64,000 nucleotides of DNA. Origin: an uncultured delta proteobacterium (lineage in GTDB: Bacteria > Desulfobacterota > Binatia > Binatales > Binataceae). Shown here piece by piece: positions 7,001-25,075 of the stretch. Within the stretch, counting starts at the first letter, position 1. The number at the start of each line of letters is the position of its first letter. Made by a program: the position numbers and the translations under genes. The notes below the pieces were generated by a model, which did no database searches, was not told the origin of the DNA, and worked only from the letters and a program-made list of their open reading frames with translations. The DNA is taken from assembly GCA_963724765.1 (NCBI GenBank), contig CAVRVY010000003.1, positions 928,001 through 992,000 on the forward strand. The letters run 5' to 3'.

Positions 7001-7978
7001 ATGAGCAAGCCCGTAACGCGCAGCGCGATCCAGGTTATCAGCCACGGTCCATCCTGCCTCGACGGCGTGATGGCGGCGGCTGCGGTCGCGCGCTTTTACG
7101 AGGGGCAGCGCGTAATCACGCGGCTGGTCGCCAACAACGATAGCGACCGCGTGCTCCAGGACCTCGAACTTCGCACCGGCGGCGAGGACGACGAGGTCTG
7201 GATCACCGACCTTTCATGGAACTTGACCGCGACCGGCGAGCATCTGACCGATCTCGCGAAAAGAGGCGCACGCATCTACTGGATCGACCACCATCGCACC
7301 GCCGTCGGGCGCGCCGACGCGCCCGAGTTCAAGGTGCCGTTCGCCGGCCGCGTGCTTTCGGAGCAATACTCGGCCGCGCGGCTGACTTTCAACTACCTGC
7401 GCAAGCGCGCCGCCACGCTCCCGGCGGCCCGCGCCCGCGCCTTCGAGGAGTTCGCCACCTTCGCCGCGATCGCCGACGATCACGACCGCTGGGTCCATCG
7501 CATCCCCGAGTCCAACAACTGGGCGCTCGCCGTGCAGACGCTCGGCGGGATCGAATCGTACCGCGACATTTTACGCCTGCGCGAACCGAAGCTGTCGCGG
7601 CGGATGCGCACGGCGCTGGAGACCGGACGCGAGGCGATGGCGAAGTCGCTGGAACTGGCGCGCTCGACGATGGTCGACCGGATGCTCGGTAACGGGATCA
7701 AGGTGCGCAGCGCGTGCTGCTTCGGCTACAGCAGCGAGGTCGCGGCCGCGCTCTACGAGGGTCAGACGCGCACGGTGATCGCGCTGTTCGACCTGCGCAG
7801 CCAGGGCGTCAGCCTGCGCCGCAGCGCCGACTCGGAAATCGATCTCTCGGAGCTGGCGCGGGTCTTCGGGGGCGGCGGCCATGCGGCGGCGGCCGGTTTC
7901 GCGACCTCGGATCTAAAGCGCGCGCCGGCCGAGCGTCTCGCCGAACTGCTGGGCGACCGTCTCGCGACCGCCGTGTGA
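7001..7978 (+). CDS. DHH/DHHA1 phosphoesterase (NrnB-like nanoRNase)
   Basis: SH..CLDG, ITDL, IDHH, GGGGHAAAAGF motifs. Confidence 0.85.
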   Translation: MSKPVTRSAIQVISHGPSCLDGVMAAAAVARFYEGQRVITRLVANNDSDRVLQDLELRTGGEDDEVWITDLSWNLTATGEHLTDLAKRGARIYWIDHHRTAVGRADAPEFKVPFAGRVLSEQYSAARLTFNYLRKRAATLPAARARAFEEFATFAAIADDHDRWVHRIPESNNWALAVQTLGGIESYRDILRLREPKLSRRMRTALETGREAMAKSLELARSTMVDRMLGNGIKVRSACCFGYSSEVAAALYEGQTRTVIALFDLRSQGVSLRRSADSEIDLSELARVFGGGGHAAAAGFATSDLKRAPAERLAELLGDRLATAV

Positions 7979-7994
7979 TTCCAATGCCCGTTCT

Positions 7995-8021
7995 GTGATC
8001 CTGAGCGTCAGCGAAGGATCT
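7995..8021. repeat. REP-like palindromic element
   Basis: GTGATCCTGAGCGTCAGCGAAGGATCT resembles the GTCATCCTGAGCG..AGCGAAGGATCT intergenic repeat type. Confidence 0.5.
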
Positions 8022-8103
8022 CCGCGAAGCGACGGACCTTTTTCCTCGGCATGAATCGACGCCACGCACCGTTGTATGGACGGTCGGGACAACCTCATAG
8101 CTC

Positions 8104-8132
8104 TTGCGACAGGAAGCGGCGGGCGCGATAAT
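8104..8132 (+). promoter_or_regulatory. sigma70-type promoter of tRNA-Val
   Basis: TTGCGA-17nt-GATAAT ending 12 nt before the tRNA. Confidence 0.6.
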
Positions 8133-8144
8133 TCGTCTCCCGGT

Positions 8145-8222
8145 GGACGCATAGCTCAGCCCGGTTAGAGCGCTTGCCTCACATGCAAGAGGTCCCTGGT
8201 TCGAGTCCAGGTGCGTCCACCA
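8145..8222 (+). tRNA. tRNA-Val (anticodon CAC)
   Basis: Acceptor stem GGACGCA/TGCGTCC, anticodon arm CTTGC-CTCACAT-GCAAG, T-arm CCTGG-TTCGAGT-CCAGG, encoded CCA. Confidence 0.97.
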
Positions 8223-8224
8223 AA
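8176..8224 (+). repeat. attL (3' half of tRNA-Val)
   Basis: GCCTCACATGCAAGAGGTCCCTGGTTCGAGTCCAGGTGCGTCCACCAAA; 45/49 identical to 21055-21103. Confidence 0.92.
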
Positions 8225-8280
8225 ATTCCCGCCTGAATCAAGCCTTTCGTCACAAATAGATGACTCGCCGAGTCGTCCAT

Positions 8281-8299
8281 TGTGCCAGTTCTGTGTCAG
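8281..8299 (+). promoter_or_regulatory. Putative integrase arm-type sites (left)
   Basis: TGTGCCAG and TGTGTCAG at 11-bp spacing; the same motif occurs near attR. Confidence 0.65.
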
Positions 8300-8317
8300 A
8301 CACGAGGGGTGTGCGCC

Positions 8318-8656
8318 ATGAAGAACGAGCCAGCCGCTCGCGTCAAGCGACCGGTCGACGCCGCGTCGACACCGGCGACGATGAGCAAGACACAATACGC
8401 CCGCGCGGAGATCGCGCGCGCGCGGCCCGACCTGGAGGAGTTCGGTTGGGACGACGTCGCGATGGAGCGGATCGCGGACATGCTTCAGCCCGGCGACATC
8501 ATCGACTTCATCGGCGTTGCCATGGTCCGCTTTGGACCGCCGAGTCGGCCCGGGCTTTTTGGCTGCGACCGATGGCCGGCGCCGCCGGAGCAGCCGCCAA
8601 TCCCGACGCTCGATGAACGCGTAACGCCTCACATCAGAGCGCGCAAGTACGCCTGA
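8318..8656 (+). CDS. Hypothetical island protein
   Basis: RBS GAGGGG; stop overlaps next start (TGATG). Confidence 0.55.
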   Translation: MKNEPAARVKRPVDAASTPATMSKTQYARAEIARARPDLEEFGWDDVAMERIADMLQPGDIIDFIGVAMVRFGPPSRPGLFGCDRWPAPPEQPPIPTLDERVTPHIRARKYA

Positions 8657-9033
8657 TGGAAGCGGCAGCGAGAGTCTTTGTCTACCCCAACGGACCGGCG
8701 AGCTGGATGGCGCATCACCTGGCCAGCGGCATCGGCGCAATGGGCGCGACTCGAGAAGCGGCGACTGCGGCGTTTCGGCTCATCTGGACCGCACGCACCG
8801 AGGTGCGATTCGTCGACGGACCGCCGCCGCGTCCGAGACGTGATGGCTTCGCTGATGCCGATCAAAGTAAATCCGCGGTTCCGGCGCCGGAGCTCGAGCC
8901 CGAATGGTCGCGCGTCTTTAATGCCCAGATGATGCGATTCCATCCCGACCGCAATCCAGACGCTACTTTTTCGGGCTCGGAGGTCACCGCTGCGCTGATT
9001 GAACTGCGCGATGCGATGAGGGGCGATGGTTAA
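8656..9033 (+). CDS. Island protein with C-terminal J-domain-like HPD motif
   Basis: MMRFHPDRNPD followed by a helix; coupled to neighbouring genes. Confidence 0.55.
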   Translation: MEAAARVFVYPNGPASWMAHHLASGIGAMGATREAATAAFRLIWTARTEVRFVDGPPPRPRRDGFADADQSKSAVPAPELEPEWSRVFNAQMMRFHPDRNPDATFSGSEVTAALIELRDAMRGDG

Positions 9034-9514
9034 GAAGCGCAAAAAGAAACCGGCGCCGCGAAATACCCACACGCCACCCGATCAGTACGACTTCATTCAA
9101 CACTGCGCGAAGCTGCTCAAGGCTCGTGTCGCTGCGGGTGTCTATCGCGATCGGCCGGGGCTTGAAGCGGCGATCATAGATTTCGATCCCGCTATCGCCC
9201 TGATCGAGATAGCGGCGGACCCTGCCAGCACGCCCGACATGCGCGCCGCAGTGAGCGCCAAGCTCATGCCGTTCTGGCACAAGGAACAGTCGTTGCTTGT
9301 GAAGGAACACGGCGACGGACCCGCTGACCACAATGTCGTGGTAATTGTCCAGCCTTGGGCGAGCGGTCCACGCCGCATCGAGGCCGCCCCAGCCGCCATC
9401 GAGCCGCCGCTCGAGGTGAGGACCGGCGAGGATACGCCAGTCGAGGCCGAAGTCGTCGAGCCGGTTGAAGACCCCAAGCGCATCGTAGGTTTTACGCCGC
9501 AAGGCGTCCCGTGA
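9026..9514 (+). CDS. Putative terminase small subunit-like protein
   Basis: Basic N-terminus, then DPAIALIEIAADP...MRAAVSAKLMPFWH, then a short beta tail (HNVVVIV); pattern recognition only. Confidence 0.45.
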   Translation: MVKKRKKKPAPRNTHTPPDQYDFIQHCAKLLKARVAAGVYRDRPGLEAAIIDFDPAIALIEIAADPASTPDMRAAVSAKLMPFWHKEQSLLVKEHGDGPADHNVVVIVQPWASGPRRIEAAPAAIEPPLEVRTGEDTPVEAEVVEPVEDPKRIVGFTPQGVP

Positions 9515-9729
9515 GCGCCGAACGTCTCGCGCAGTTGAGAGACATGGGGACCGACCTGACTCGGTTCACGCTGGCGCCGACGCCGGAGGTGCGCGCGCCG
9601 GGATTCCAGCCCTACGAGATGAGCAACGGCAGGCCGGTAAAAACGAGTTGGAAGGAACGCGAGGAGCGGCTTGCTGAAGGCGCCGAAGTGCGACGTGCGG
9701 CGCAAGCCAAGGTCATCATCGAGGAGTGA
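9511..9729 (+). CDS. Hypothetical island protein
   Basis: GTGA overlap with upstream stop. Confidence 0.5.
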   Translation: MSAERLAQLRDMGTDLTRFTLAPTPEVRAPGFQPYEMSNGRPVKTSWKEREERLAEGAEVRRAAQAKVIIEE

Positions 9730-9794
9730 CGATTGCGAACAAAGTAGTGCGGCGCGAATCGCACGAATAGCCAGTAACTAATGGAGAATACGCA

Positions 9795-10019
9795 GTGGGA
9801 AACGAGGACGGACAACACAGGTCATCGACAACCGGGCCGCAGCCCAATAACGGTCAGCGCCAGCGGCAACATGATCCAAATTCGTCAGGGCCGCGATTGG
9901 GCCGGAGCATCGTGCCGCCGAGCCGGCCTGGCGCGGATATCGACACCGAATCGGGCGCCGCGGGGCGCGAGCGCGAGCGCGGGCTGCGCGACGCGATGCG
10001 CAACCGGCCCGGCAAGTAG
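9795..10019 (+). CDS. Small hydrophilic hypothetical protein
   Basis: RBS GGAG before GTG. Confidence 0.4.
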   Translation: MGNEDGQHRSSTTGPQPNNGQRQRQHDPNSSGPRLGRSIVPPSRPGADIDTESGAAGRERERGLRDAMRNRPGK

Positions 10020-10028
10020 AGCGCCCCA

Positions 10029-10720
10029 ATGGAAGTCACAATCGCCGGCAGGACCTTCAACCTGGAGCGGCTGTTGACGCCCGCCGGGCGCCGCGCGGCG
10101 CTAGCCGATCCCGAAATGCGCAACTCATTCGCGAGATACAACGCGACCCGAAGCAATTCGGATTCGGCGCCGATGACGTGCGCGGTATCGTGGAATGGAG
10201 CACGGGCGAATTTGACGGCGCGACCGCCCAAGAGCTGCGCGAGAATTTCGCGTCAGAGGAAACCATGAACGACAAACAAATGACCGAGCTGCAAAACCTT
10301 TACGCCAGCAGCGAATACAGACGCGCCTCGAATATGCGCACGGACCGCGCGAAGCTGAACGACCCCGCAAATCGTGCCGCGCGCCTGGCGTGGAACCGCG
10401 CGCAGGAGCTCGAGGCGGCCATGAAGGCGGAGCAGCCTGCCCGCCAAGATCGCGACTATGCGGGCAACCCGAAATCACCGGGCGGCGTGATGAAGCCGAC
10501 CGATCGTTACATCCCGACCACGATCAGCGACCTGGCGAAGCTGCCGCCGGTCGAGCAGGCCAACAAAGCCCGAGAACTGCGCGCCAGCATCCGCGACAAC
10601 AAGGCGCATCCGTACTGGAACGAGCACCACGAAGGCCACAAGCAGGCGGTCGAAGAAATGGCCGTGCTGTACAAGGCCGAGCAGCTAACGGATGGCACGC
10701 CGACGCTCGGCGAGGAATAG
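10029..10720 (+). pseudogene. Scaffold-like protein, frameshifted near 10120
   Basis: MEVTIAG...DPEMR joins LIREIQRDPKQFGFGADDVRGIVEW after a 1-nt shift; C-terminus HPYWNEHHEGHKQAVEEMAVLYK. Confidence 0.55.
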
Positions 10721-10740
10721 TCAGAAAAGGAGACTTAGTA

Positions 10741-10967
10741 ATGGCAAGCAACAAACTCAGAATTGGACAGCATAGGGATTCGAGCGGCAGCGCCCCTAAC
10801 TCCTTCAGAAATCAATTAGAAGCACTGCGGCCGACGTGGGGCAGCCCAGCGGCGGCGAGTTGAACAATGGCGCGGCGCCTGGCCCGAAGGCCGATTCGAT
10901 GGTCAATCGGACGCGTCACGACCCGAGCCGTGAGGCCGGTGAGGCGCGCGGAACGCGCAGGAAGTAG
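10741..10967 (+). pseudogene. Small hypothetical protein, probably frameshifted
   Basis: Strong RBS AAAGGAG; MASNKLRIG... continues in another frame as STAADVGQPSGG...GTRRK*. Confidence 0.35.
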
Positions 10968-11539
10968 AAGCAAGTGAAATCGGACAGCCATCGAGAAAAG
11001 AGCGCATTGACCCATCCCGTCAGTGAGCATCCTGACCGTCAGCCGCCAATATCAGTCACGGCAGCGGCGAACCGTTCCATCACACGCATCCGAGTGACTT
11101 GCGCCGATTTAATCGCGAGGCCGAGCCAGTCGAGATGCATCATCATCTACCCGAGAAATCGGGCGATGAGATTATGAGCGTCGCTCATCGCGAGCACGCA
11201 GCGCAACGCGCACCACGCGCGGCAGCGATGAAAGACACTAAGTCGCAAACCAGAAGCACCGGATCGCGTCAGCACCGGAAACCCTACGATCTCGTCGAGC
11301 GTGTCGCGCGCGCAGCAAAGCTCTGGTGGATCGATCACGAGCCAACGGTCAATGGATCGTCGGCGTCACAGTCTGAATCACGCGCAGAGCCAGGTCGATA
11401 GCTTCCTGATGCTTTGGCCTTGCAAACTCGGGATTGTCTTTCACTCGTTCCAACCCATCGGTAATGCGCTGCTTGATGCGGGCAGGGCGTTGACGTTCGA
11501 GCCGTCACCGGGATAAAAGTCGCGTGTTTAGAAACTCAA

Positions 11540-12763
11540 ATGATAATCTCGTGGAAGACGCCAACCTCCGGTCGTCAATTGAGCATTGCGGCCTGGATAC
11601 TGATTGCGCTCTATTTGCTCGGGTTTGCAATCTCGGCAGCGGTTCGCTCCCAAAGCGACTTCATCATTTACAGAAACGCCGGCATCCAGGCTGCTCATGG
11701 CGGCCAGATCTATGATTTTCAGGATCCGAGCCCATTCCAATACGCACCCATTTACGCCGTGGCTTTTATTTCATTGGGCCTCCCTCCCCTGCGCCTGGCG
11801 CAACTACTGTGGTTTCTGGTCAGCATGGTCATGGCCCTGCCCGCCATGGTCCTGGGCACGCGCCGCCTGCTATTTGGCCGCGGGTTCGAGCTGCGCTGGC
11901 AACTGATCGTTATCCCGGTCCTTCTATGTACAAGATTTCTCCATCCCAACTTCGATCATGGCCAGATCAACCTACTCCTCGTGGCGATGGTAGTATGGGG
12001 GCTCACGCTGGCGAATGAATCACGCTCGGTGGCGGCGGGAGCTCTTTTGGCGGCGTCGGTGCTGGCGAAGCCGTTCGGGTTGCCCGTGATTCTGTACCTG
12101 TTCGGACGGCGCCGCGTCCTTTTCATCATTTCCTTACTGTTTTTCGCTGTGGCCCTGCTCTGGCTGCCGTGCGTGATTGTGGGCGTCGGTTACACACTTC
12201 ATCAAACCGACGAGTATATAAGGAGCCTGACCACCCGGGTTCCTCACCTCTCGCACGATCTGTACAACAAGTATAACCAGTCGGCTGCCGCGATCGCCGT
12301 GCGGCTGTTCGCGGCCACGAAGCAGCGCGGCGGCCTGTTGAGTCAAAGTGCGGCCGCGAGCATCGGATTCGCCTTCCAATGCGCGCTCACATTTGTGGTT
12401 GTTGTCTGGATCGTACTGCGATGGAGCCGCACGACCGAGCAGAATACCCGGCTGTCCTTGGCGGCGCTGTTTTGCACCGCCGCGGCATTCTCACCGGTCT
12501 CGTGGCTCGAATACTACATGATGCTCGAGGTGCCATATATGGCGCTCGCGTTTATCGCCTGTTCCAAAGAGGCGACGGATCGCAGCCATGCGAGGGCGGC
12601 GCAATTCGTGCTGGCGGGCGCGCTGGTTTTGAACCTGGGCACCCGATTGTTCGAACCGGCCTTGTATTACGGCGCCGTATACTTCGGCTCGCTGGCGGTG
12701 CTCGTGACGATCCTGGCTCTGACCGGGTTCAAGGAGCCGCCGCCGCTCGAAGCCGCTTTGTGA
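11540..12763 (+). CDS. GT87/DUF2029 polytopic membrane glycosyltransferase (island cargo)
   Basis: SDFIIY, FQYAP, NFDHGQINLLL, LAKP, NQS, SPVSW motifs; many TM segments. Confidence 0.85.
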   Translation: MIISWKTPTSGRQLSIAAWILIALYLLGFAISAAVRSQSDFIIYRNAGIQAAHGGQIYDFQDPSPFQYAPIYAVAFISLGLPPLRLAQLLWFLVSMVMALPAMVLGTRRLLFGRGFELRWQLIVIPVLLCTRFLHPNFDHGQINLLLVAMVVWGLTLANESRSVAAGALLAASVLAKPFGLPVILYLFGRRRVLFIISLLFFAVALLWLPCVIVGVGYTLHQTDEYIRSLTTRVPHLSHDLYNKYNQSAAAIAVRLFAATKQRGGLLSQSAAASIGFAFQCALTFVVVVWIVLRWSRTTEQNTRLSLAALFCTAAAFSPVSWLEYYMMLEVPYMALAFIACSKEATDRSHARAAQFVLAGALVLNLGTRLFEPALYYGAVYFGSLAVLVTILALTGFKEPPPLEAAL

Positions 12764-13024
12764 CGTGAGCCGACTCGGCGGGCCCGGCTCAAGTGCCTGG
12801 ACGTTCTACGCAATTGCTTAGCGCCTCTCGACTCTTGTTGGGTGGGCGCCCTCTGGAAAGGGCCGGGTGTGCCGGGCGAGCGAACAAACGAGTTTCTAGC
12901 GTGGGCGCAACACATCGATGAATCGATGGACGTGCTGCGCGAGTTCGTGGATAAAGCCGCGCCGCCACCGAAGAGGAAACGCAGCGCTGCGCGGAAGCTG
13001 AAGCGGGCCGCCTGACCATCCCCA

Positions 13025-13083
13025 CCGGGCCGCTCGGGGCAACCTCCATATCCTTGGAGGGCCTTGCACCTGGGCGGCCCTTT
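13025..13083 (+). repeat. Structured hairpin repeat, copy 1 (terminator-like)
   Basis: 57/59 identical to 14045-14103; long bulged stem-loop plus T-tract. Confidence 0.85.
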
Positions 13084-13147
13084 TCTATTTCACGATAGCG
13101 CGAGATGATTATTCAGCGGTGCCGAACAATGGAGGGAGGAATCAAAC

Positions 13148-13626
13148 GTGGCAGAGAACAACACCGCGCTCGACGACATCTACTGCGACCTCGACGAAGT
13201 GCACGGCGAAGCCCTTTACGAGGGTACCAATAGCCTCAGAGAAATCGTCGTCCACGCGCTGTCGCGACTGCCGACCGAAGTCTACGAAGACCTGATGCAC
13301 GGCGAGCGCCCAGTCCATTTCTTCGGGCTCGGCGCCCACCAGTGGGGCGTAGCCCTTCGCTGGCATGTACCTTACCGCCGTGCGATAAGCCAAGCACACA
13401 CGAGATGGAGGTCATCGTGCTCAGCGGTCAGTTGTGCACCATGCCACCCGAAGAGGCCGTGTTCACCGTCGCTCACGAACTGGCTCACGTCTATCTCGGG
13501 CATACAGGGATTCATGCGTTGCCCCTCGGCGATAAGCCCCCGCAAGAAACCGAAGAGCGGGCCGACGACCTTGCAGCTCAGTGGCTCGGATTTAGGCCGG
13601 CGAATTTGGCACGGAAACGGCCCTAG
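13148..13626 (+). pseudogene. HExxH zinc metalloprotease (ImmA/IrrE- or M48-like), frameshifted near 13375-13390
   Basis: RBS GGAGGGAGG; N-terminus in ORF 13148, C-terminus AHELAH...EERADDLA in ORF 13342. Confidence 0.65.
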
Positions 13627-13767
13627 GAGCTTTCAGCCGGCATCAACCCCTGCCTCGACAGTCCAGAGGGGCGTCAGAATTAGCAGGGAAATCGTGTCGG
13701 CCATTCCTGAGCGCGATGACCGTCGCGCGTGCTTTGGTTTTCAGATCGCCTCTGCTAGATGGCAGGC

Positions 13768-14037
13768 ATGAAGCCCCACCACGCCGCTGCGCTTGCCTTG
13801 GTCGGCTGGTATCTGATGCAGCCGCCGCTGCCGCACCTCAATGGTCATCCTACCACCCCGCGCATCGCCGCCGGGCCCTTCTCAGGCTGGACAATAGCTG
13901 AGACCTTCCCTACCCAGAAGAAATGCGAGACCCACCGAAGCAATCCGTGGGACCGGTGCGTCGCCAGCAATGATCCGCGCCTCAAGGCAAAACAGGACAC
14001 GCCACCTTTCAAACTAGGACACTCGCCCTCAGATTAG
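13768..14037 (+). CDS. Small secreted two-Cys protein (AAALALVGWYLMxPP...CxxxDPRLK family)
   Basis: MKPHHAAALALVGWYLMQPP...C...RCVASNDPRLKAK; family recognised from memory as expanded in Binataceae. Confidence 0.6.
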   Translation: MKPHHAAALALVGWYLMQPPLPHLNGHPTTPRIAAGPFSGWTIAETFPTQKKCETHRSNPWDRCVASNDPRLKAKQDTPPFKLGHSPSD

Positions 14038-14044
14038 GACAGCG

Positions 14045-14103
14045 CCGGGCCGCTCGGGACAATCTCCATATCCTTGGAGGGCCTTGCACCTGGGCGGCCC
14101 TTT
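14045..14103 (+). repeat. Structured hairpin repeat, copy 2
   Basis: Exactly 1020 bp downstream of copy 1. Confidence 0.85.
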
Positions 14104-14124
14104 CCCTATCCGCAACGGCGCGAG

Positions 14125-14830
14125 ATGATGTCACGAGATGAAAACCAAGCTGATGATCGAAGAGGTTGGATCGTGATCTACTGCACAAAGTGCGGCGCCC
14201 CTGGGCCTGCGGACGTGAACTATTGTCGTAAATGCGGCGCCCACCGTACCCATCATCGGTTGCGCAAGGCGGTCGTTGTCGCCGTTGCGATTGTGGCCGG
14301 GTTCGGAATTCTCGGGGCGATAATCAGCGAGAAGAAGAACTCGCCGTTCGACAACCCAAAAGTGGCGGCGACTACGCCTGTTGAAAGTGCCGATATGTCG
14401 GCAGATCCAACGGGGATAGATCCGTACGTAACTCCAGAAATGGAGGCGGGAGAGCATTACCGCGCAAACATAGTGGCCATCCTAAAGCCTAGTCAAGAAA
14501 GCATGGGCGCCTTTGCCGAGCTGATGGAGTCTCCACAGATAGACGATCCTGGCTGGGCACTTCAGCTAGAAAAGACGATTATGCCTTGGCGTGAGACGTA
14601 TCGTGCTGCGATCACCATGAATCCGCCTGCGGACTGGCGGAATGTGCACACTTGCCTACTAACTAGCCTGTCCGAACTGAATCAAGCGGCTAACGACAGT
14701 CGCACGGGGCATCAGCTCTCGCGATCTTGCCGTTCTCTCGCTGGCGAACACTGAATTAGAAGAGAGCAGCCGTCTAATGGCGCAATGCTCGACACAAATC
14801 GATAGGGAGATTCAAGAGCCCCGCAAGTGA
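14125..14830 (+). pseudogene. Zinc-ribbon + single-TM membrane protein, probable frameshift near 14698
   Basis: YCTKCG..NYCRKCG, TM helix; the helical C-terminus VARGISSRDLAVL...EPRK* is in another frame and overlaps the next start. Confidence 0.55.
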
Positions 14831-15009
14831 GCAGCCGCCCCGCCATGCTCGATTACATCGCGCTCCTCGCCGCCTGGGTTTTGTGGGTGACGTTCCTGTT
14901 GAGCGGCCAACCCTACACACCGTCGAGCCCGTTCCGAAACTACCGCAGCCCGATCCACGACGCGCGACCAGTGCGAGCACCAGCACCAGCGCAGTTTGAC
15001 CGCGGTTAA
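14827..15009 (+). CDS. Small membrane hypothetical protein
   Basis: One hydrophobic segment. Confidence 0.35.
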   Translation: MSSRPAMLDYIALLAAWVLWVTFLLSGQPYTPSSPFRNYRSPIHDARPVRAPAPAQFDRG

Positions 15010-15052
15010 TACGCGCTGATAAATCCCGGACATACCCTACGGAGAAATCACG

Positions 15053-15361
15053 ATGGCCGATACGCAAATTGGACAATGGCTAAGGGCCAAATCGGAGCTG
15101 AAAACCGCAGAGGCCCTCCTGCGAAACATTTTGCTCGACACCCAGCGCTTGGCAAAATCGTTGGAGCAGTGGCGGTCAATCCAGCCGGACGGCCCCGGAG
15201 TGCGGTATCCTGGAACCAAGGACTCCTTTGAGCCGGATACCTGGCCAGACTGGCGAGCCGTTAATGCCGCCCTGAGGGCCTGCCACGAGGCTCAGCAGAA
15301 ATTCAGCCAAGCGGACGATGCGCTCACGCCTCAAGACCGGAAGCTTCTAGAGCCTGACTGA
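15053..15361 (+). CDS. Hypothetical island protein
   Basis: RBS GGAG; helical, non-shadow composition. Confidence 0.55.
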   Translation: MADTQIGQWLRAKSELKTAEALLRNILLDTQRLAKSLEQWRSIQPDGPGVRYPGTKDSFEPDTWPDWRAVNAALRACHEAQQKFSQADDALTPQDRKLLEPD

Positions 15362-15824
15362 GTCGTGTAAGCGCGCACCGAATAATTTGCCCGCCACAGC
15401 CGATATGAGGCGTCGCAATTCTGGACGCTGCCAACCCTGCCCGACGCTCTCACGACCCGTCAGGATTAGCGAGAAAATTACTGGCGCACGTTCCCGCTCT
15501 CGATGCCCGAGGACAGAGCCTGTTTCAAATCTCGTAAAAGTTCCCTGCTGAGAGGGACCCACGCGCGATCGCGCTCGCAAATTTTGGGGGTGTACCCCCG
15601 CCGACCTGGCAAAAGGATTGTTAGATCGATGCGCCGATTTCAGGATGGTCACCATCCGACGACGGTCACCATGGCGCCGGCGGGGATGGTCAGCGTGATG
15701 AGGTCGACGAGCTGCGCGTGGGCGTAAGTGACACAACTCTGACACAGCGGACACGAAGCGGTTGCGGGAGAAGCGTTTTACGCGGACCGTTTGTTTTGAC
15801 TGCGGGTGTTCACGGCCGTAGCAC

Positions 15825-16091
15825 CTAGGTAGCGGGCGGCTGCAATATCCGCTGAATTGTCGCGCATGGCATCGAACAGCAGTGCGTCCGCTGACCTGAC
15901 CTGATGTCAGAGCGCATTCGCGTGAACATCACGTTGCAGACCGCACACTGAAGCTCGACGCGATGACCTGGCGCCCATGCGACGCGCCACGGCCGGCCAT
16001 GCCATCGAAGGATTGCCACCTCGTGAGGATACGCGAGCGCGCCGGCCTGTCCAACCGGTCGAACACGGAAGTTAGTGACGCTTGGTGACAC
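15825..16091 (-). CDS. Small zinc-finger-like protein
   Basis: CAVC...HCCSMPC; RBS GAAGGA. Confidence 0.5.
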   Translation of the reverse strand: MSPSVTNFRVRPVGQAGALAYPHEVAILRWHGRPWRVAWAPGHRVELQCAVCNVMFTRMRSDIRSGQRTHCCSMPCATIQRILQPPAT

Positions 16092-16235
16092 ATATTCCTT
16101 CTTCAGAGGTTAGCGTGCGCGCGCCTGACTAGACCCTTAAAAATGGGAGAAGCGTCACCACCTGTCACAAGCGAGGGCGCGCTTTCAGAAAGTCGGCGAC
16201 TTTGTTGCAACTTTTGCCGTGACCCTTTGTTTGGG

Positions 16236-16961
16236 TCACCTGGGCTGGAGTCCAGCACCGCGAATTTTTCGTCGGTGATGATACCGGTCGTGATTGGCGC
16301 GGTAGCGGCGGGCGCGGAGAGCCTTGGTGTGCAATGGGCAAGCGCCGGGGGCGTTGCCGCTGGGGAGTAGGCGCCTAGCATAAAAGTAGGAACCGCAGAT
16401 TTCGCAGCGGCCGATTCGGCAGATCTCGGCGCCTTCGAGCGACGCCAGGTCCGGCATGAGGCCGCCGCCGCGGCGAACAACAATCCGGCCGGCCTTGTCA
16501 TGGTCGAGCGCGATCGAGACGCGGATATATGCGATCGTCGGTGTCGCGGTCGCGCCAGGCGTGTTGAGCTTCATCGCCGCATCGAGCACACGGCGCAGCA
16601 TCACGACATCGGCCTTGGCGTTCGCCGCCCTGCTCGCCTCAAGCGCGCGCTTCACGACGGTCCACCCGCCGAATTTCTCGTGATCTGGGCCATGCTCTTC
16701 CATGTGGTGCCTGACGAGCTCGCCCAGGTCGCGGTCGGTCTGGTCGAAGTTTGGGAACTCGGTGACGTTCGCGAAGGCGAACACTGCCTGTAATTTCGCG
16801 TTACGCCTGGCCGGTGAATCTGCTGCGCTTGGCGTTACTACTTTCGGTGCGTCACGCTTGACCAGCGCCGGCTGAAGGGTTGGCGTGACGGTGCATAACG
16901 CTTGGCGTATCCGTTTGGCGGTTCGAAGTTTGGAAGTACCTCGCGCTTTTTGCCTCGTCAT
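16236..16961 (-). CDS. Putative regulator with C-terminal CGNR-like zinc finger
   Basis: IGRCEICGSYF...ACPLH.KALRARRYR; divergent from xis-like gene. Confidence 0.55.
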   Translation of the reverse strand: MTRQKARGTSKLRTAKRIRQALCTVTPTLQPALVKRDAPKVVTPSAADSPARRNAKLQAVFAFANVTEFPNFDQTDRDLGELVRHHMEEHGPDHEKFGGWTVVKRALEASRAANAKADVVMLRRVLDAAMKLNTPGATATPTIAYIRVSIALDHDKAGRIVVRRGGGLMPDLASLEGAEICRIGRCEICGSYFYARRLLPSGNAPGACPLHTKALRARRYRANHDRYHHRRKIRGAGLQPR

Positions 16962-17042
16962 ATCTGTGCTCCGTAATGGGTTAGATGTAATGTCTTACAC
17001 AGTGGCCGACCAAAGGCAACCGTGACGACGAGGGCATTAGCG

Positions 17043-17249
17043 ATGCGTGAACACGGAAACGAAACAGGCGCGGCCTTTCTCGGGCCGCAGGAGTTTGGCT
17101 CGCGGCTCGAACCGCCGCTTTCGGCCGCACAAGTCCGGAAGCTATGCGACCACGGCCGGGTTAAGGCGTTCAAGACTCCGGGTTGCAACCGGATCATCCC
17201 GGCCGCCGAGCTGCAACGATTCGCGGCCGAACGTAGCAAGCGGCGGTAA
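17043..17249 (+). CDS. Excisionase/MerR-like HTH protein
   Basis: LSAAQVRKLCDHGRVKAFKTPG.NRII...ELQRF. Confidence 0.75.
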   Translation: MREHGNETGAAFLGPQEFGSRLEPPLSAAQVRKLCDHGRVKAFKTPGCNRIIPAAELQRFAAERSKRR

Positions 17250-17312
17250 AAAACAGGAACGCCGCGGGGCAAACCGCGGCGCGAAGAAGGGCAAGCGAAA
17301 GCACTACTGACA

Positions 17313-19887
17313 ATGCCCAGTGTACGCACAGACCAGCCTGAAAAACCAGTAGCCCTGAAAGTCGCGCCCGAGCATATTCCGCTGGGACTCCAGATCGCGG
17401 ACTGCTGGGTGCCCTGGCGGTATGAGCTGGTGCAGAACGGCAGAGGCGAGTCGAAGTGGACCAAGCCGCCCCGGCAAGCGAGCGGCGAGTACGCCGACGC
17501 CACGGACCGCACGACCTGGACCTCCTTTGCCCTTGCCGTCGTGGCTTATCGTTCCGGCCGCTTCGATGGCATCGGCCGCGTGTTCTCCGCTGACCATCCG
17601 TACACCGCCATCGACCTTGACCATTGCCGCAATCCTGTCACCGGCGCCATCGAGCAGTGGGCCGTCGACTTGATCACACTACTGCGCAGCTATGCCGAGA
17701 CCTCGCCAAGCGGCACAGGTATTCGGATCGTGGTGCGCGCCAAGCTACCGCCGGGTTCGCGCAATCGCAAAGGCAACATCGAGATTTACGATGACCGGCG
17801 ATATTGCACGCTTACCGGGCATCTACTCGATGGCGCTGTGGCCACGGTCGAGCCAAGGCAGGCTGAGGTCGAGCAATTCCTTGTGAAGGTCTTCGGCGAC
17901 GCGGCCAAAAAGACTGTTCACAGTAATGGCAACGGCAATGGGCGCGGCGCTACAGCCGCCCCGAGCATCGATGATGCCGCACTGCTCGAGAAGGCGCGTG
18001 CGGCGCGCAATGGCGACCGCTTCGCGGCACTCTACGATCGTGGCGATTACAGTGGCTATTCGTCGCAGAGCGAGGCCGACCTTGCGCTGTGCGGAATGCT
18101 CGGATTCTGGTTCGCTGGAGATGCCGCAAGTATCGACCGCCTATTCAGACATTCAGCACTCATGCGCGACAAATGGAATCGCGCTGACTATCGCGAGGAT
18201 ACCCTAGCGAAGGCTGTCAGTGGCCGCACTGAGTATTACGATCCGCTGCACGGCGTCCGCAATGGCGCTTCGCCGGAGACACATGAAGCCGACGAACAGC
18301 CGACCGCCGAGGCACGGGAATCGTCGTCGGCTTCACTGGCCGGCAACGAGTTAACGGAAGAGCCCGACCCAGCGGGGCCTTATGGTGACATTGCGCTATC
18401 GCATCGCCTGGTTAGGCAACATGGCGCCGATCTGCGACACGCTCCCGACGGGTGGTATCGCTATGATGCTCGGCGTGGGCTTTGGGAACACGACCAGAAG
18501 CTGAAGGTGTTCAGCTTGGCTAAGTCGATGCTGGCCGCCGTCTCGCACGAAATCTACGCCGACGTAGTCAAGTACGGCAAGTTTCCCGACAAGGAAACGG
18601 CCGAGGCGGCCGCGCGTCGAGCGACCAATGGCGTCAGCAGCGCTAGAACCGTAGCCGCAATTGTCACGCTCGCGCAGTCGCATCCAGCAGTGGCTATTAC
18701 TGTTGACCAATTCGACCGTGATAACTGGCTACTAAATACGTCCGGCGGTGTGGTAGTCGATCTACGTGATGGTACTACGCGTCCGGCGCGAATGCGACGA
18801 TTATTTCACAAAGACTACAGTGGTCGCTCCGCGAGAGATGCCCACACCAGTGTTCGATACCTTCATGCGCGAGATCATGGGCGCGCATATCTCACCCGAG
18901 GCTTGCGCGTGCGCTGCCTGCCTCAAGAGTTCGGGAGAGCTCGACGCCGAGCGCCAAGCCGACCACGATGCCGAAGTTCAGGCGCTAGTTGACTACCTAC
19001 TCCGTGTGTATGGCTATTGCTGGACTGGCGATATCCGCGAGCATGCGTTGTTTTTCCAATTGGGCGAAGGCGGTAACGGCAAGGGCGTGCTCAATGACCT
19101 GATCGAACTCGATATAATGGGCCGGCCGCCAACCGGCTATGCGTGTACGATTCCGATTGAGGCCTTGCTGTTAGCCAGAGGAGAAAGACATCCGACCGAG
19201 CTAATGGACCTTTTCCGTACCCGTCTGGCACTGGCTCGCGAGTCCGACGAGGGCACAGTGTGGAACGAGGGCCGGGTTAAATCGCTGACCGGCGACGCAG
19301 TAGTCAAGGCTCGCCGGATGCGCGAGAATTTTATCGAATTTTCGCGCACTCATAAGTTGATACCCTTCGGTAACGCACGCCCCCTCCTACGCGGCGCCGA
19401 TCAGGCGGCATGGAAGCGCCGCCTGCAACTGACTAATTTTCCACAGAGATGGGACGATGAGGCCGACACGGGGAGGGGTATCCGAAAGGCGGACAAGAAA
19501 CTCGACATAAAGCTTCGCGCGGAAGCTCCCGGAGTCCTGCACGCACTCATCAAGGCTTGCCACGAGTATCAGGACATTGGCCTGGCGCCGCCGCAGACGG
19601 TCAAAGCCGCGTCCGAAGGTTATCTCAAGGAACAGAACACCGTCGCCCGTTGGGCCGATGACCGTCTTGATCGAGAGCCGAGTGCAAGCTCGACCGTCGC
19701 CGAGCTGTGGCGCGACTTCATCACGTGGGCCGAAGCCGACAAGGAGTACACAGGCCACCGCCGCGACTTTAATCGCCGACTGGAACGCCTCGATATCAAG
19801 ATAACGCGGACCGGTTCGCAGCGCGGTGTCTGCCCAGGGGTCGCCCTGAAAGTGAGACCCGGCGCACAAAACGAGGCGCCGCTATGA
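17313..19887 (+). pseudogene. Primase-polymerase fused to D5/P4-alpha-type SF3 helicase, 1-nt frameshift near 18790
   Basis: IDLDHC, YAETSPSGTGIR, IEIY..RYCTLTG, SQSEADLALC, LFRHSALMRDKW (PrimPol/helical bundle); D5_N LLNT.GG.VDL; Walker A GEGGNGKG, KSLTGD..KAR. Confidence 0.88.
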
Positions 19888-20276
19888 ACGATACCTACAC
19901 GATGTTCGTCTGTGTGCGGCGTGAAACGGCAAAGGCGCTGCTGGTCGAACGGCTGGACAGCGGCGGGTTTGAGGAACATTGGGTGCCGCGATCACAGATT
20001 CGCAACTCTGAGGTTTGCTCCCGCGGAGATAGCGGTCATATCGAGGTCACGCGCTGGTGGGCAGAGAAGGCCGGGATACTCGACGACGAGGGTGGCAGCG
20101 AGCGTAGCACAGCGCCGCCAACGGTCGAGCTGACCCATGCGACACGCATCTATCGCCAGCTCGCACAGCGGCACCATCCGGATCGCATAGGCGGAGATGG
20201 CACGACGATGAAGGCGATCAACGTGCTGTGGGATGCGGTCAAGTCCGACATCGAGAAGGCGGCAAGCAGCCGATGA
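19884..20276 (+). CDS. Phage-type protein with C-terminal J-domain-like region
   Basis: RETAKALL..WVPRSQI N-terminal domain; IYRQLAQRHHPDRIGGD..MKAIN. Confidence 0.7.
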   Translation: MNDTYTMFVCVRRETAKALLVERLDSGGFEEHWVPRSQIRNSEVCSRGDSGHIEVTRWWAEKAGILDDEGGSERSTAPPTVELTHATRIYRQLAQRHHPDRIGGDGTTMKAINVLWDAVKSDIEKAASSR

Positions 20277-20581
20277 TTTCCTTTGACATCGCTGCTATCC
20301 CGCGCGAGCAGATTCCGGCGTTGATTACCGCCTTGGCCGCGCGACTGCCAGAGCCCGTGCCTACCGCGGCGCCGTCCGCTGGTGACAAGTTGCTCACGGT
20401 AGAAGAGGCGGCCGCAAAGCTGGGCGTGACAAATGAATGGCTCTATCGTCGCGGCAAGCGATTAGGTCTCGCAGTCAAGTTGGGCGATGGCACCCTTCAG
20501 TTTTCCAGCAGCGCGCTCGACGCCTACATCAAAAACCAGACCATCCCGGCAGCGCCCGTTCGGCGCCGACGGGCGGCTTGA
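20273..20581 (+). CDS. Excisionase-like HTH (HTH_17/AlpA-like)
   Basis: LLTVEEAAAKLGVTNEWLYRR...VKLG..LQF..ALDAYI; ATGA overlap. Confidence 0.8.
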   Translation: MISFDIAAIPREQIPALITALAARLPEPVPTAAPSAGDKLLTVEEAAAKLGVTNEWLYRRGKRLGLAVKLGDGTLQFSSSALDAYIKNQTIPAAPVRRRRAA

Positions 20582-20608
20582 CACAGCTGATATGTTGATA
20601 TCATGATA
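20578..20608 (+). promoter_or_regulatory. Promoter with TGATA(T) repeats, candidate RHH operator
   Basis: TTGACA at 20578, then TGATAT-GT-TGATATCATGATA. Confidence 0.55.
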
Positions 20609-20646
20609 GCGGCATGGGAACAAAGAAACGCAAGGAGGCAACACTC

Positions 20647-20781
20647 ATGCTGAGGCCAACACTCGTTAGGCTGCCCCCGGATCTGTTGAGACGGGCCAAG
20701 AAGATCGCGATCGACCGCGACACTAGCCTTCAGGCGCTAGTCACCGAAGCGCTCGAAGCCTACCTGAAGGTGCGCTCATGA
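20647..20781 (+). CDS. Ribbon-helix-helix (CopG/Arc-like) regulator, 44 aa, not in ORF track
   Basis: MLRPTLVRLPPDLLRRAKKIAIDRDTSLQALVTEALEAYLKVRS; RBS AAGGAGG. Confidence 0.8.
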   Translation: MLRPTLVRLPPDLLRRAKKIAIDRDTSLQALVTEALEAYLKVRS

Positions 20782-20919
20782 GCCGCGAAATGCGCGGCAG
20801 GGAACGGTCTACAGCGCGGGCAAATCTGATGGATGGAGCGCGTCTCGGAGTACGTAGCAGCTTGCGCAGCCGAGCCCGTCAGGAGCAACGTCATTCCGCT
20901 AGTCAGGAAGGCCGGATGA
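20778..20919 (+). pseudogene. Tyrosine integrase remnant (fused N- and C-terminal stubs)
   Basis: With two 1-nt shifts it reads MSREMRG.GTVY.RGQI*WM, then ERVSEYV...SNVIPLVRKAG*; lies between RHH and attR. Confidence 0.6.
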
Positions 20920-20949
20920 TGTATCAGGATTGTGCCAGTCCTGTGCTAG
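20920..20949 (+). promoter_or_regulatory. Putative integrase arm-type sites (right)
   Basis: TGTATCAG, TGTGCCAG, TGTGCTAG at 11-bp spacing. Confidence 0.65.
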
Positions 20950-21054
20950 AACTCACGCGCACGCACGGCATACCAGACCAGACGCCGGGTGGAAAAATCC
21001 ACGGAATACTTGGCGTCGTTGCACGTCAATGGCCGTGCGTGATGGGCGTAATCC

Positions 21055-21103
21055 GCCTCACATGCAAGAGGTCCCAGGTTCAAGTGCTGGTGCGTCCACC
21101 AAA
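21055..21103 (+). repeat. attR (displaced tRNA-Val 3' fragment)
   Basis: GCCTCACATGCAAGAGGTCCCAGGTTCAAGTGCTGGTGCGTCCACCAAA. Confidence 0.92.
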
Positions 21104-21170
21104 TCAACCCCAAGCGTCTCGTGCAATCGAGTCGGAGCAATCCTGCGACTGCGGCCGTGCCGCGGTGTGT

Positions 21171-21758
21171 TTATTGCGGATGTTTCGACTTGTCGTGCAA
21201 ACCCCGGGCTGTGTTGATCTCGTCGGCGTTGGCCATGTCGAGTCCGAGCGCCTGGATCGAAAGCTCGAAACGCTCCTGCATCGTGGCATCGTCCCGGGTG
21301 AAGTTGCGCACGAGGCAGCAGTACTCGAGCGACATCCCGTTGGGATCCTTGAAGTAGATCGACTTCGCCCATCCGTGGTCGACCACGTCGGTCACCTGCA
21401 CGCCCTTGTCGATCAGTTCCCGGCGCTTGTCTTCAAGTCCCGCGATGGACCCGGCCTCGAAGGCGAAATGGTAAAAAGCCGCCGGCGTGCCGAGCCCGCG
21501 ATTGATGCCCGCGTCGTACTCGACCGGAACTCCAGGAATCCCGCGCGGCTCCATGAAGGCCAGCAACTGATCGCGGCCGGTGTCAAAGAAAATGTGTCGG
21601 ATGGCGCCGCCTTCCTTGATCTTGATCGTATCGGCGACCACTACCTTGAAGCCCAGCACCTTCTCGTAAAACTCCCGCGTCTTGTCGAGGTCGAGGGTGG
21701 AGAGCCCGACGTGGGAAAATCCCTTGTTGGTCATCGCGTTGGACATCGTATTAGCCAT
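21171..21758 (-). CDS. VOC/glyoxalase family protein
   Basis: FSHVGL..DLDKTREFYEKVLGF, HFAF, SIYFKDPNGMSLE. Confidence 0.88.
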   Translation of the reverse strand: MANTMSNAMTNKGFSHVGLSTLDLDKTREFYEKVLGFKVVVADTIKIKEGGAIRHIFFDTGRDQLLAFMEPRGIPGVPVEYDAGINRGLGTPAAFYHFAFEAGSIAGLEDKRRELIDKGVQVTDVVDHGWAKSIYFKDPNGMSLEYCCLVRNFTRDDATMQERFELSIQALGLDMANADEINTARGLHDKSKHPQ

Positions 21759-21893
21759 GGGCCGTGTCCTCCTCGTTTACGGGCGGGGCGAGCTGTTAGG
21801 CGAAGTCAGCGTCGACTGCCAGCCGACACTTAATCTTTAACACCCCCGCCGCCAGCCAACAAGCGCCACGCCGGCCCGGCCTGACGAATCGGT

Positions 21894-25021: not shown

Positions 25022-25075
25022 TTAGGACTTCTGGGCAGGTTAGGAGTTCTGGGCAGGTTAGGACTTCTGGGCAGG
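25022..25075. repeat. 18-bp tandem repeat x3
   Basis: TTAGGA(C/G)TTCTGGGCAGG three times, abutting the kinase start. Confidence 0.9.

Follow-up and report, generated by a model that had tools for sequence, protein, structure and literature searches.

The element reported here comes closest to three kinds of described systems: the phage-inducible chromosomal islands and Staphylococcus aureus pathogenicity islands (PICIs and SaPIs), the satellite P4, and the tycheposons of Prochlorococcus. The alpha protein of P4 is a primase-helicase. According to the sections of de Sousa et al. (10.1101/2022.09.14.508007) used here, the SatelliteFinder model of a PICI has five core components, and elements with three of the five are classed as 'Type C', maybe defective PICI or other mobile elements. 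For the tycheposons, the sections of Hackl et al. (10.1101/2020.12.28.424599) used here give integrase, excisionase and primase/helicase as the hallmark genes and describe tandem integrations, partial tRNAs and fragmented integrases. Here we analyse an island of 12.9 kb that is inserted in a tRNA-Val(CAC) gene of a genome of 5.4 Mb in 4 contigs. The island lies in a stretch of 64,000 nucleotides, G000:C3:928001-992000, which we call the window and whose positions are used for all coordinates below unless a contig is named. A preliminary description of the window, made from the sequence alone, had placed the lineage probably in Binatota, and the genome indeed belongs to the Binataceae.

With a probability of roughly 0.7, we consider the island to be a copy, now decayed and immobilised, from an undescribed family of Binataceae elements of ~13-15 kb that integrate and replicate themselves. 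It resembles the PICIs and SaPIs in a size of ~13-15 kb, site-specific integration between attachment (att) sites, a regulator/excisionase of the alpA/merR type, a primase-replicase, cargo genes and the lack of virion genes. With the tycheposons, as the cited sections present them, it shares the tRNA-targeting tyrosine-recombinase type, the excisionase, the primase/helicase and the cargo or PICI-like content. The family seems not to have been described before: a full-text literature search for 'Binatota' with 'satellite' found, in titles and the first parts of abstracts, no mobile element or phage satellite in Binatota.

The tRNA-Val(CAC) gene (8145-8222, forward strand) is the sole tRNA of the window according to ARAGORN, and among the Rfam RNA families only the tRNA family is matched, at 69.7 bits. 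The part of the gene from 8176 onwards is carried by the element. It belongs to a direct repeat (D2) of 49 nt that starts on the 5' side of the anticodon loop, takes in the rest of the tRNA down to its 3' end and continues for 2 nt beyond, forming attL at 8176-8224 and attR at 21055-21103, both on the forward strand. The two copies are identical at 45 of the 49 positions, and the mismatches are at repeat positions 22, 28, 32 and 34. As all four are 3' of position 21, the crossover took place 5' of position 22, on the anticodon-loop side. Tyrosine integrases often cross over in the anticodon loop. The G+C content of the island is 0.57-0.64, compared with 0.65-0.72 upstream.

A DNA search with the island and its flanks covered 40 relatives, and the results are stated among the matches listed. 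Both flanks are present in congeners with 81-92% identity. The island interior was found in 0 of 16 congeners among these matches, with the exception of a glycosyltransferase gene and a gene for a small secreted protein, both at other loci. In G002 and G015 the distance from the tRNA-Val to the glyoxalase gene of the right flank is 1.1-1.5 kb. The 3' half of the relatives' tRNA-Val is 94-98% identical to attR of the window (98% in most congeners, e.g. G002, G015, G016), whereas it matches the tRNA-proximal half of the window more poorly, with 82-97%. With the tRNA-Val of G240 and G452, two genomes of other genera, that proximal half shares 100% identity. Because the proximal half is that of other genera and the distal half that of the congeners, the element brought its own tRNA 3' half and displaced that of the host, which is now attR. 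Judged by these alignments the island is real, and the swap of tRNA halves is the expected signature of an integrase-mediated insertion. The att duplication of the tRNA 3' half, on which the preliminary description had based the island, is therefore upheld both by the repeats and by the congeners without the island among the matches listed.

Inside the att sites lie two copies of an arm-type motif of 21 nt, TTGTGCCAGTTCTGTGTCAGA, one at 8280-8300, 55 nt inside attL, and the other at 20930-20950, 104 nt ahead of attR, both on the forward strand. The motif (TTGTGCCAGTYCTGTGYYAGA) has only these two occurrences in the 5.4-Mb genome, one per island end, both oriented alike. Beside tRNA-Val or att copies in G005, G016 and G023, positions 8225-8300 are conserved at 86-89%, and positions 20928-21102 share 74% identity with the end of a different island, found in G005. 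When the motif was searched for in 101 genomes of the family, hits with 3 mismatches were no commoner than in a reversed-pattern control, and hits were used only if they had at most 2 mismatches or adjoined a tRNA-Val or an integrase. A hit with 3 mismatches in G465 is not used for any claim here.

To follow the island outside the assembly, Logan contigs were taken from four public runs (X1-X4), which belong to three studies, and aligned to positions 7400-21800. Among these contigs none bridged the island and none was listed with an attP joint, a result that, given their low depth, says nothing on mobility; the sole joint was a skip of 128 nt at 13828-13957 (X4). One contig of X4, a peat metagenome, has a loose end at 8178, ahead of the att core, that resembles the arm sequence of the G240 type. 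It reads as if a G240-like element, or its attR/attP junction, is present in that metagenome.

The window copy has lost its integrase. A search with PF00589 gave 15 matches in the whole genome and none in the window, and tblastn with ten integrases from the same genome found nothing in the island. The place of the missing gene can be read from G240 and G446, where the same type of arm motif starts 4-8 nt past the stop codon of a tyrosine integrase and is followed by the att core ~100 nt later. In G240 this core is tRNA-Val-like. The two integrase ORFs (open reading frames) are 386 and 453 aa from stop to stop, and that of G240 has 374 aa from the first start codon. Hence the integrase belonged at the far end of the island, downstream of the replication genes, as had been proposed. 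In the window, only 148 nt separate the stop codon of the ribbon-helix-helix gene (20781) from the arm motif, where the integrase gene should be. Within them, the frame 20833-20919 (forward strand), which ends 10 nt ahead of the motif, probably holds the last 28 codons of the integrase. Thirteen of 23 residues are identical to the C-terminus of the G240 integrase, with an E-value of 0.13 in a search limited to the island, and there is no significant nucleotide match. It is the collinear position with the G240 integrase that makes the stub probable. The stub of the preliminary description is thus retained as a probable remnant, to which the integrase gene has, by this comparison, been deleted.

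The replication and regulatory genes occupy the right part of the island. An ORF on the reverse strand, 16236-16961, codes for a putative regulator with a Cys-rich C-terminus. It has no Pfam or PHROG match, and at the equivalent place G013 has a Cys-rich protein of 292 aa with a weak match to zf-CGNR. The replication operon starts divergently from it with a small helix-turn-helix (HTH) DNA-binding protein (17022-17249, forward strand, like all other genes of the operon), for which both matches are weak (HTH_17, E 0.014; phrog_6401, a DNA-binding protein, 7e-4). Of the regulator/xis switch proposed earlier, the divergent arrangement therefore holds, but its HTH partner is only weakly identified. 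The next gene, 17313-19887, codes for a PrimPol - HBD - D5_N - SF3 helicase protein and is split into the ORFs 17313-18992 and 18766-19887 by a frameshift near 18785. The first ORF matches the NrS-1 HBD (8.5e-23) and D5_N (1.3e-13) families in Pfam, and the next, in another frame, matches DUF5906 (2.9e-6). In the same way phrog_1829, with 772 positions, aligns over positions 4-456 to the first piece and over 485-735 to the second, and in Bacillus phage yong1 both parts abut within one annotated primase gene, so that we regard the two ORFs as one frameshifted primase-helicase gene.

It is followed by a small protein (19884-20276) that has a phage-like N-terminal domain (phrog_8389, 3.9e-9), an HPD motif and a match to DnaJ at E 0.025, and then by a Xis/AlpA-like HTH_17 protein (20228-20581; Pfam 5.6e-6). 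The latter matches phrog_66 (1.3e-6), annotated as excisionase and transcriptional regulator, and is 67% identical over 58 aa to the product of the gene that adjoins the G240 integrase. A ribbon-helix-helix protein of the Arc/CopG type (20614-20781; Antitox_RHH 2.2e-5, Arc-like repressor PHROGs) is the last gene before the arm motif. Ahead of it, at 20551-20615, is a promoter-like site, TTGACA-18-CATGAT, with two overlapping palindromes (I4 and I7), which may be an operator. No convincing tandem or clustered repeat that could represent iterons or an origin was found near the replication genes. The Pfam and PHROG matches agree with the preliminary description as to the PrimPol-D5 helicase, the second xis and the ribbon-helix-helix gene.

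The tripeptide HPD is the signature of J-domains. Two small island proteins, 8656-9033 and 19884-20276, have it in a J-domain-like helix-loop-helix context, and they might recruit the host DnaK for replication.

The left part of the island, next to attL, consists of a module of five to six genes on the forward strand that we number ORF1 to ORF7. ORF1 (8282-8656) has 73% aa identity to its copy in P2, a second element of the same genome, and its real start is probably an ATG near 8318. ORF2 (8656-9033) carries the HPD motif in the C-terminal part of its translation and has homologues in P2, G004 and G013. ORF3/4 (9026-9729) appears as two ORFs, 9026-9514 and 9511-9729, separated by a 1-nt indel near 9503. 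The alignment of homologues reads through the 9514/9511 break, and one homologue, P0013, matches in two frames, so the two ORFs are one gene. Compared with the paralogue in P2, the window copy is short of one base near 9503, while the P2 copy is short of one base ~70 nt further on. ORF5 (9795-10019), which codes for a small Gly/Gln/Arg-rich protein, is preceded by a GGAG-like site and is conserved in P2, G004 and G013. ORF7 (10029-10720) is made up of the ORF 10178-10720 and, probably, a frameshifted N-terminus at 10029-10268. The N-terminal link was judged by eye and was not recovered by tblastn; full-length relatives of ORF7 have 217-311 aa. These three points, the frameshift in the primase-helicase, the unity of the 9026 and 9511 ORFs and the probable extension of the 10178 gene, were missed in the preliminary description.

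Elements that share this module are the evidence for a family. P2 (C3:820396-834957, 14.5 kb) is in the 3' end of a tRNA-Lys(CTT) and is flanked by 45-nt att repeats that are 100% identical. Its genes are, in order, a kinase/NUDIX-like gene, HTH_17, a DnaN-like clamp, a PrimPol with HBD and an AAA_25 helicase, a zinc-ribbon gene, the ORF1-7 module and an LCM methyltransferase. Between P2 and the window, the module has 87-88% nucleotide identity. P2 has no integrase by the same PF00589 and tblastn searches, its primase is frameshifted at a different place from that of the window, and its ORF7 has a TAG stop. In the congener G013 (contig C14), a partial 3' half of tRNA-Met and arm-type repeats lie beside a tyrosine integrase. 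There follow the 292-aa Cys-rich protein, an intact Prim-Pol with DUF3987 (748 aa), a zinc-ribbon protein and a module with ORF2, an intact ORF3/4 (227 aa), a 121-aa ORF and an ORF7-like gene (311 aa), and then an HNH_3 endonuclease, ORF5, cargo and a further HTH_17 gene before the contig ends. The island of another congener, G004 (C4, ~195665-209894) has the module and two HTH_17 genes without a primase or integrase, and is flanked by direct repeats of 509 nt with 97% identity.

The module-bearing elements are ~13-15 kb long, and the same five to six genes occur with three different replicases (D5_N/DUF5906, AAA_25 and DUF3987). Scans of ORFs from the window island, P2 and G013 brought up no virion family. 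The primase operon of the latter two leads directly into the module without an att site between them. The window island is therefore a circular permutation of their layout, and the co-oriented operons that had been proposed to be contiguous across attP in an excised circle are indeed joined in these relatives. The data fit a family in which a conserved orphan cassette is kept while the modules for integration (tRNA-Val, -Lys, -Met) and for replication (three helicase types) are swapped.

The cassette is rare. An exhaustive HMMER search of 1.84 billion representatives gave 16 relatives of the 9026 ORF, and a profile search of 5.8 billion protein clusters gave the same 24 members of the ORF3/4 family only, all of them unnamed. 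Relatives are found in 3 of 165 Binataceae genomes, G000 counted, and none was found in public genome contigs, 2.9 million viral contigs or metagenome contigs. A second metagenome scan, with P0025 as the query, gave only a 2.5-kb contig with the end of the gene, and no protein of the island or of P2 matched that contig. The 10178 ORF has 6 homologues among the 5.8 billion protein clusters, and none was found in a further 400 genomes of the phylum.

The run contigs bear on whether the two frameshifts are errors of the assembly. At the primase site, contigs covering 18692-19211 (X1) and 18582-18896 (X2) have 0 mismatches and 0 gaps, and the same is true at the ORF3/4 site for contigs covering 9401-9704 (X2) and 9365-9813 (X3, from another study) and, further on, for a contig covering 9880-10243 (X3). 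The only indel reported inside the island is a 3-nt insertion variant at 10333. As the contigs are identical across both sites, the frameshifts are reproduced outside the assembly. We also mapped 35 intact ORFs of G002 on the window as a test of assembly error. Frame switches were seen in flanking genes and the result is ambiguous. In the clearest case, 31237-36021, the window has an ORF of 1594 aa and the G002 counterpart maps with frame switches. One of the two assemblies has indels there, and since the window ORF is intact, G002 may be the broken genome.

Taken together, we propose that a tyrosine integrase would recombine attP, formed by the sequence from the anticodon loop to the tRNA 3' end with arm-type sites on its sides, with the tRNA gene. 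This would swap the tRNA 3' half and leave the old half behind as attR. The HTH_17 Xis/AlpA-like protein would direct excision, and the excised circle would be replicated by the element's own primase-helicase. The module may travel with whichever replicase is present, and variable cargo would fill the remainder. With its integrase deleted and its primase-helicase and ORF3/4 frameshifted, the window island would be unable to excise or replicate alone and is now probably fixed cargo, made up of a GT87 glycosyltransferase and of small secreted and zinc-ribbon proteins.

Several points weigh against this interpretation. The integrase stub, taken alone, is not statistically significant (E 0.13, nucleotide match absent). 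P2 is without an integrase, yet its att repeats are perfect, which would fit mobilisation in trans over simple decay. X1 and X2 come from one study, maybe the source of the assembly itself, and a second study bears only on the ORF3/4 site, so some frameshifts could be shared sequencing artefacts; the indel-rate comparison with G002 is ambiguous in this respect. The G013 element runs off its contig on the right, so that its content is incomplete. Finally, neither an excised circle nor a joint of an empty site came to light for any family member.

How intact members are transferred can be explained in different ways. One is a cargo element of the tycheposon kind that needs no helper phage but moves, for example, in vesicles, by transformation or with an integrase acting in trans, and whose module would serve regulation or replication instead of packaging; we regard this tentatively as a possible explanation. 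It is consistent with the situation at the tRNA-Val site in G003, G005, G014, G015 and G016, where other att-flanked segments with unrelated cargo are found. The segment of G005 contains AsnB, a methyltransferase and an IS256-type transposase, and tblastn found no integrase in any of the five. Across the genus, sequence comparison marks tRNA-Val(CAC) as a hot spot for integration: several genomes have additional att copies, and the att-proximal arm sequences are conserved between islands of differing content. At 10 named Binataceae loci in metagenome-assembled genomes, the tRNA-Val islands have no genes in common with the window island except the family of the small secreted protein. The perfect att repeats of P2 in the absence of an integrase point in the same direction, and the HPD motifs of ORF2 and the 19884 ORF suggest chaperone recruitment for replication. 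The cited sections of the tycheposon preprint (10.1101/2020.12.28.424599) give the same picture, with integrations in tandem, integrases in fragments and partial tRNAs scattered about. However, no transfer function was identified here either, the retention of a module of five to six genes across three replicases is left unexplained, and the only database leads for the module point to phage proteins.

These leads are among the arguments for the second possibility, a true phage satellite, which the preliminary description had proposed on account of TerS-like (terminase small subunit) and scaffold-like genes. Here the module would redirect the packaging or capsid assembly of a helper phage, with ORF3/4 as a divergent TerS and ORF7 as a scaffold or size-determination protein, and the window copy would be dead. 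The four module-bearing elements of ~13-15 kb with no detected virion genes agree with it. The PHROG most common among the ORF3/4 relatives is phrog_641, a terminase small subunit, although it is weakly matched by only 3 of 17 (E 0.0019-0.1). The nearest ESM Atlas clusters of an ORF3/4 relative are viral, with scores of 0.93-0.94, and those of an ORF7 relative are a 'putative terminase small subunit' (0.87) and T7 capsid assembly (0.84), scores that, being below 0.9, are leads only. The ORF7 relative P0006 matches, at 3.6e-7, the phage family phrog_3742, to which no function is assigned. In cos phages, terminases are assisted by HNH nucleases, and in G013 the HNH_3 endonuclease directly follows the module. 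A genuine P27 TerS (6.5e-31) is found with a ParB-methylase at the tRNA-proximal end of the G240 element, inside which PF05065 and PF03354 have no match.

In the tests for packaging functions, on the other hand, nothing significant was obtained. The module ORFs of the window (8282, 8656, 9026, 9511, 9795, 10029 and 10178) have no Pfam or PHROG match, and 0 of the 17 members of the ORF3/4 family match a terminase family in Pfam. Profile searches against the PDB with the families of the 9026 and 10029/10178 ORFs gave nothing below E 0.26, and hhalign of the ORF3/4 family with the TerS of G240 gave a probability of 0.15%. The AlphaFold model of ORF3 has a predicted local distance difference test score (pLDDT) of 64, with four helices at residues 23-94 at pLDDT 76-89. 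Compared with the PDB, its best VIA-align Z-score is 4.0, and the small terminase 7joq, at Z 3.8, is tied with unrelated helical proteins. Neither this model nor that of the ORF7 family (pLDDT 66) has a match with E<=0.001 in BFVD by Foldseek, an absence that is not informative for models of such modest confidence. With tblastn, the ORF7 homologue P0006 and the ORF3/4 homologue P0013 had no match in 50,697 phage records, besides the lack of relatives in the viral contigs mentioned above.

Nor was a helper phage identified. The genome has no match to PF05065 (HK97 capsid), PF03354 (TerL_ATPase) or PF04860 (Phage_portal), and only four to Terminase_6N (C3:36014-36658, C3:123615, C3:143293 and C4:1665109; best 3.1e-11). 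These four loci could be prophage remnants or helper candidates. The reading of the 9026 ORF as TerS-like and of the 10029 ORF as scaffold-like is not confirmed, and the 'packaging-hijack' content of the preliminary description is reduced to weak leads: the products of 9026 and 10029/10178 have no significant packaging-related homology. What stands of the satellite family is a small family without virion genes, of which the window holds a decayed and not an intact copy; its status as a satellite is unproven, and we find it doubtful. The function of the module is probably derived from phages, and capsid hijacking is our leading guess for the transfer of intact members, an unproven one. The full form of the proposal, in which ORF1-ORF7 are a packaging or capsid-hijack cassette (a divergent TerS in ORF3/4, a scaffold-like helical ORF7 and an HNH nuclease in some copies) of the first satellite family in Binatota, combining freely with three unrelated types of primase-helicase and with Val, Lys and Met integrases, appears unlikely.

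A third possibility, that the island is what is left of a full prophage after deletion of its structural and lysis genes, is highly improbable: the primase-helicase, xis and ribbon-helix-helix genes are of phage type, one deletion, that of the integrase, certainly occurred, and the G240 relative is 49 kb long and has Mu-like A/B/GemA genes, but the four module-sharing elements are all small, have the order primase-module-cargo and no detected virion gene, four independent deletions to one architecture are unlikely, and the extra DNA of G240 shares no module gene with the island and looks composite (sulfatase, Mu-like fragment). The preliminary description had named intact relatives with capsid, portal or TerL genes as a sign of a deleted prophage; the module-bearing relatives are small and without detected genes of this kind. 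We therefore keep to the reading of a decayed, immobilised member of a family of small elements.

The remaining genes of the island are mostly cargo, located centrally as described earlier. The GT87-family glycosyltransferase (11540-12763, forward strand; Pfam PF09594, 1.8e-24) has homologues with 81-84% nucleotide identity at other loci of congeners and no second copy in its own genome by DNA search, and it may therefore have been captured from the gene pool of the hosts. The gene of the small secreted protein (13759-14037) lies between two copies (13025-13109 and 14045-14129, forward strand) of an 85-nt repeat, D1. The copies are 87% identical and contain a hairpin, and related stretches recur in congeners and, within the genome, on three further contigs. 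The zinc-ribbon protein (14074-14754, forward strand) matches Zn_Ribbon_1 at 1.8e-5, just under the curated cut-off. Two small genes on the reverse strand (15347-16091) are common to P2 (79% nucleotide identity to 833840-834163; tblastx), where they adjoin its att site. Families of capsid, portal, terminase, tail and lysis proteins were found neither by Pfam among 24 island ORFs nor by PHROGs among 20, in agreement with the preliminary description. Outside the island, at 25022-25075, there are three tandem copies of an 18-nt unit, TTAGGACTTCTGGGCAGG, directly beside the start of a histidine-kinase gene (23342-25021, reverse strand).

For the soil and peat lineage Binataceae, the picture is one of tRNA hot spots populated by small elements with integrase, xis and primase-helicase genes, which would exchange replication and integration modules around a conserved cassette that is an orphan in the databases. 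If the cassette serves packaging, PICI-like parasitism would extend to a new phylum, with new TerS and scaffold folds. If it does not, the family keeps its value as an indicator of how plastic Binataceae genomes are, much like the tycheposons. The window copy itself, being a relic, has only limited interest when seen as a working system.

Compared with the PICI model, the island has three of the five core components, an integrase (as a stub), a regulator and a pri-rep gene, and would correspond to 'Type C' in the terms of the cited sections. Its integrase is a stub only, and related elements in G013 and G240 have the gene. The regulators are the HTH_17 protein at 20228-20581 and the weak second HTH at 17022-17249, and the primase-replicase is present as a frameshift-split gene. 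The differences are that there is no recognisable TerS or capsid-morphogenesis gene, that the integrase is at the far end, downstream of the replication genes, and that the host belongs to another phylum. The capsid, portal, TerL and head-tail genes of a capsid-forming PICI (cfPICI) or a prophage were not found in the Pfam and PHROG scans of the island ORFs.

The island resembles satellite P4 in its fused primase/D5_N/P-loop helicase, its AlpA-like HTH gene and its integration in a tRNA. The combination of D5_N with a DUF5906/SF3 helicase is that of a P4-like alpha-type primase-helicase, and the Listeria phage records that match the protein are annotated 'P4 family primase'. It differs from P4 in the primase domain, which is PrimPol/NrS-1-like, and in its layout. 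The Psu, Delta and Sid families and epsilon were not found in general Pfam scans of the 24 island ORFs, in which no dedicated SatelliteFinder profiles were used. As in tycheposons, integration in a tRNA leaves partial repeats (with an integrase in related copies, deleted in the window), an excisionase, replication genes and cargo are present, and arrays or remnants occur at the same tRNA. The differences are the unrelated phylum and the ORF1-7 module, which is not part of the tycheposon description in the cited sections; the likeness is one of description.

The closest system by sequence is the G240 element (C22:81869-131149) of another Binataceae genus. Its att core is 100% identical to attL of the window, it has the same type of 21-nt arm motif, and it ends in the same order of primase, xis, int, arm and att, with a primase and a xis that are 47% and 67% identical to those of the window. 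It differs in its length of 49 kb, its composite nature, with a Mu-like A/B/GemA segment and a sulfatase, its intact integrase, and the ParB-methylase and P27 TerS that take the tRNA-proximal place of ORF1-7. The G240 element is possibly a TerS-bearing, capsid-less element.

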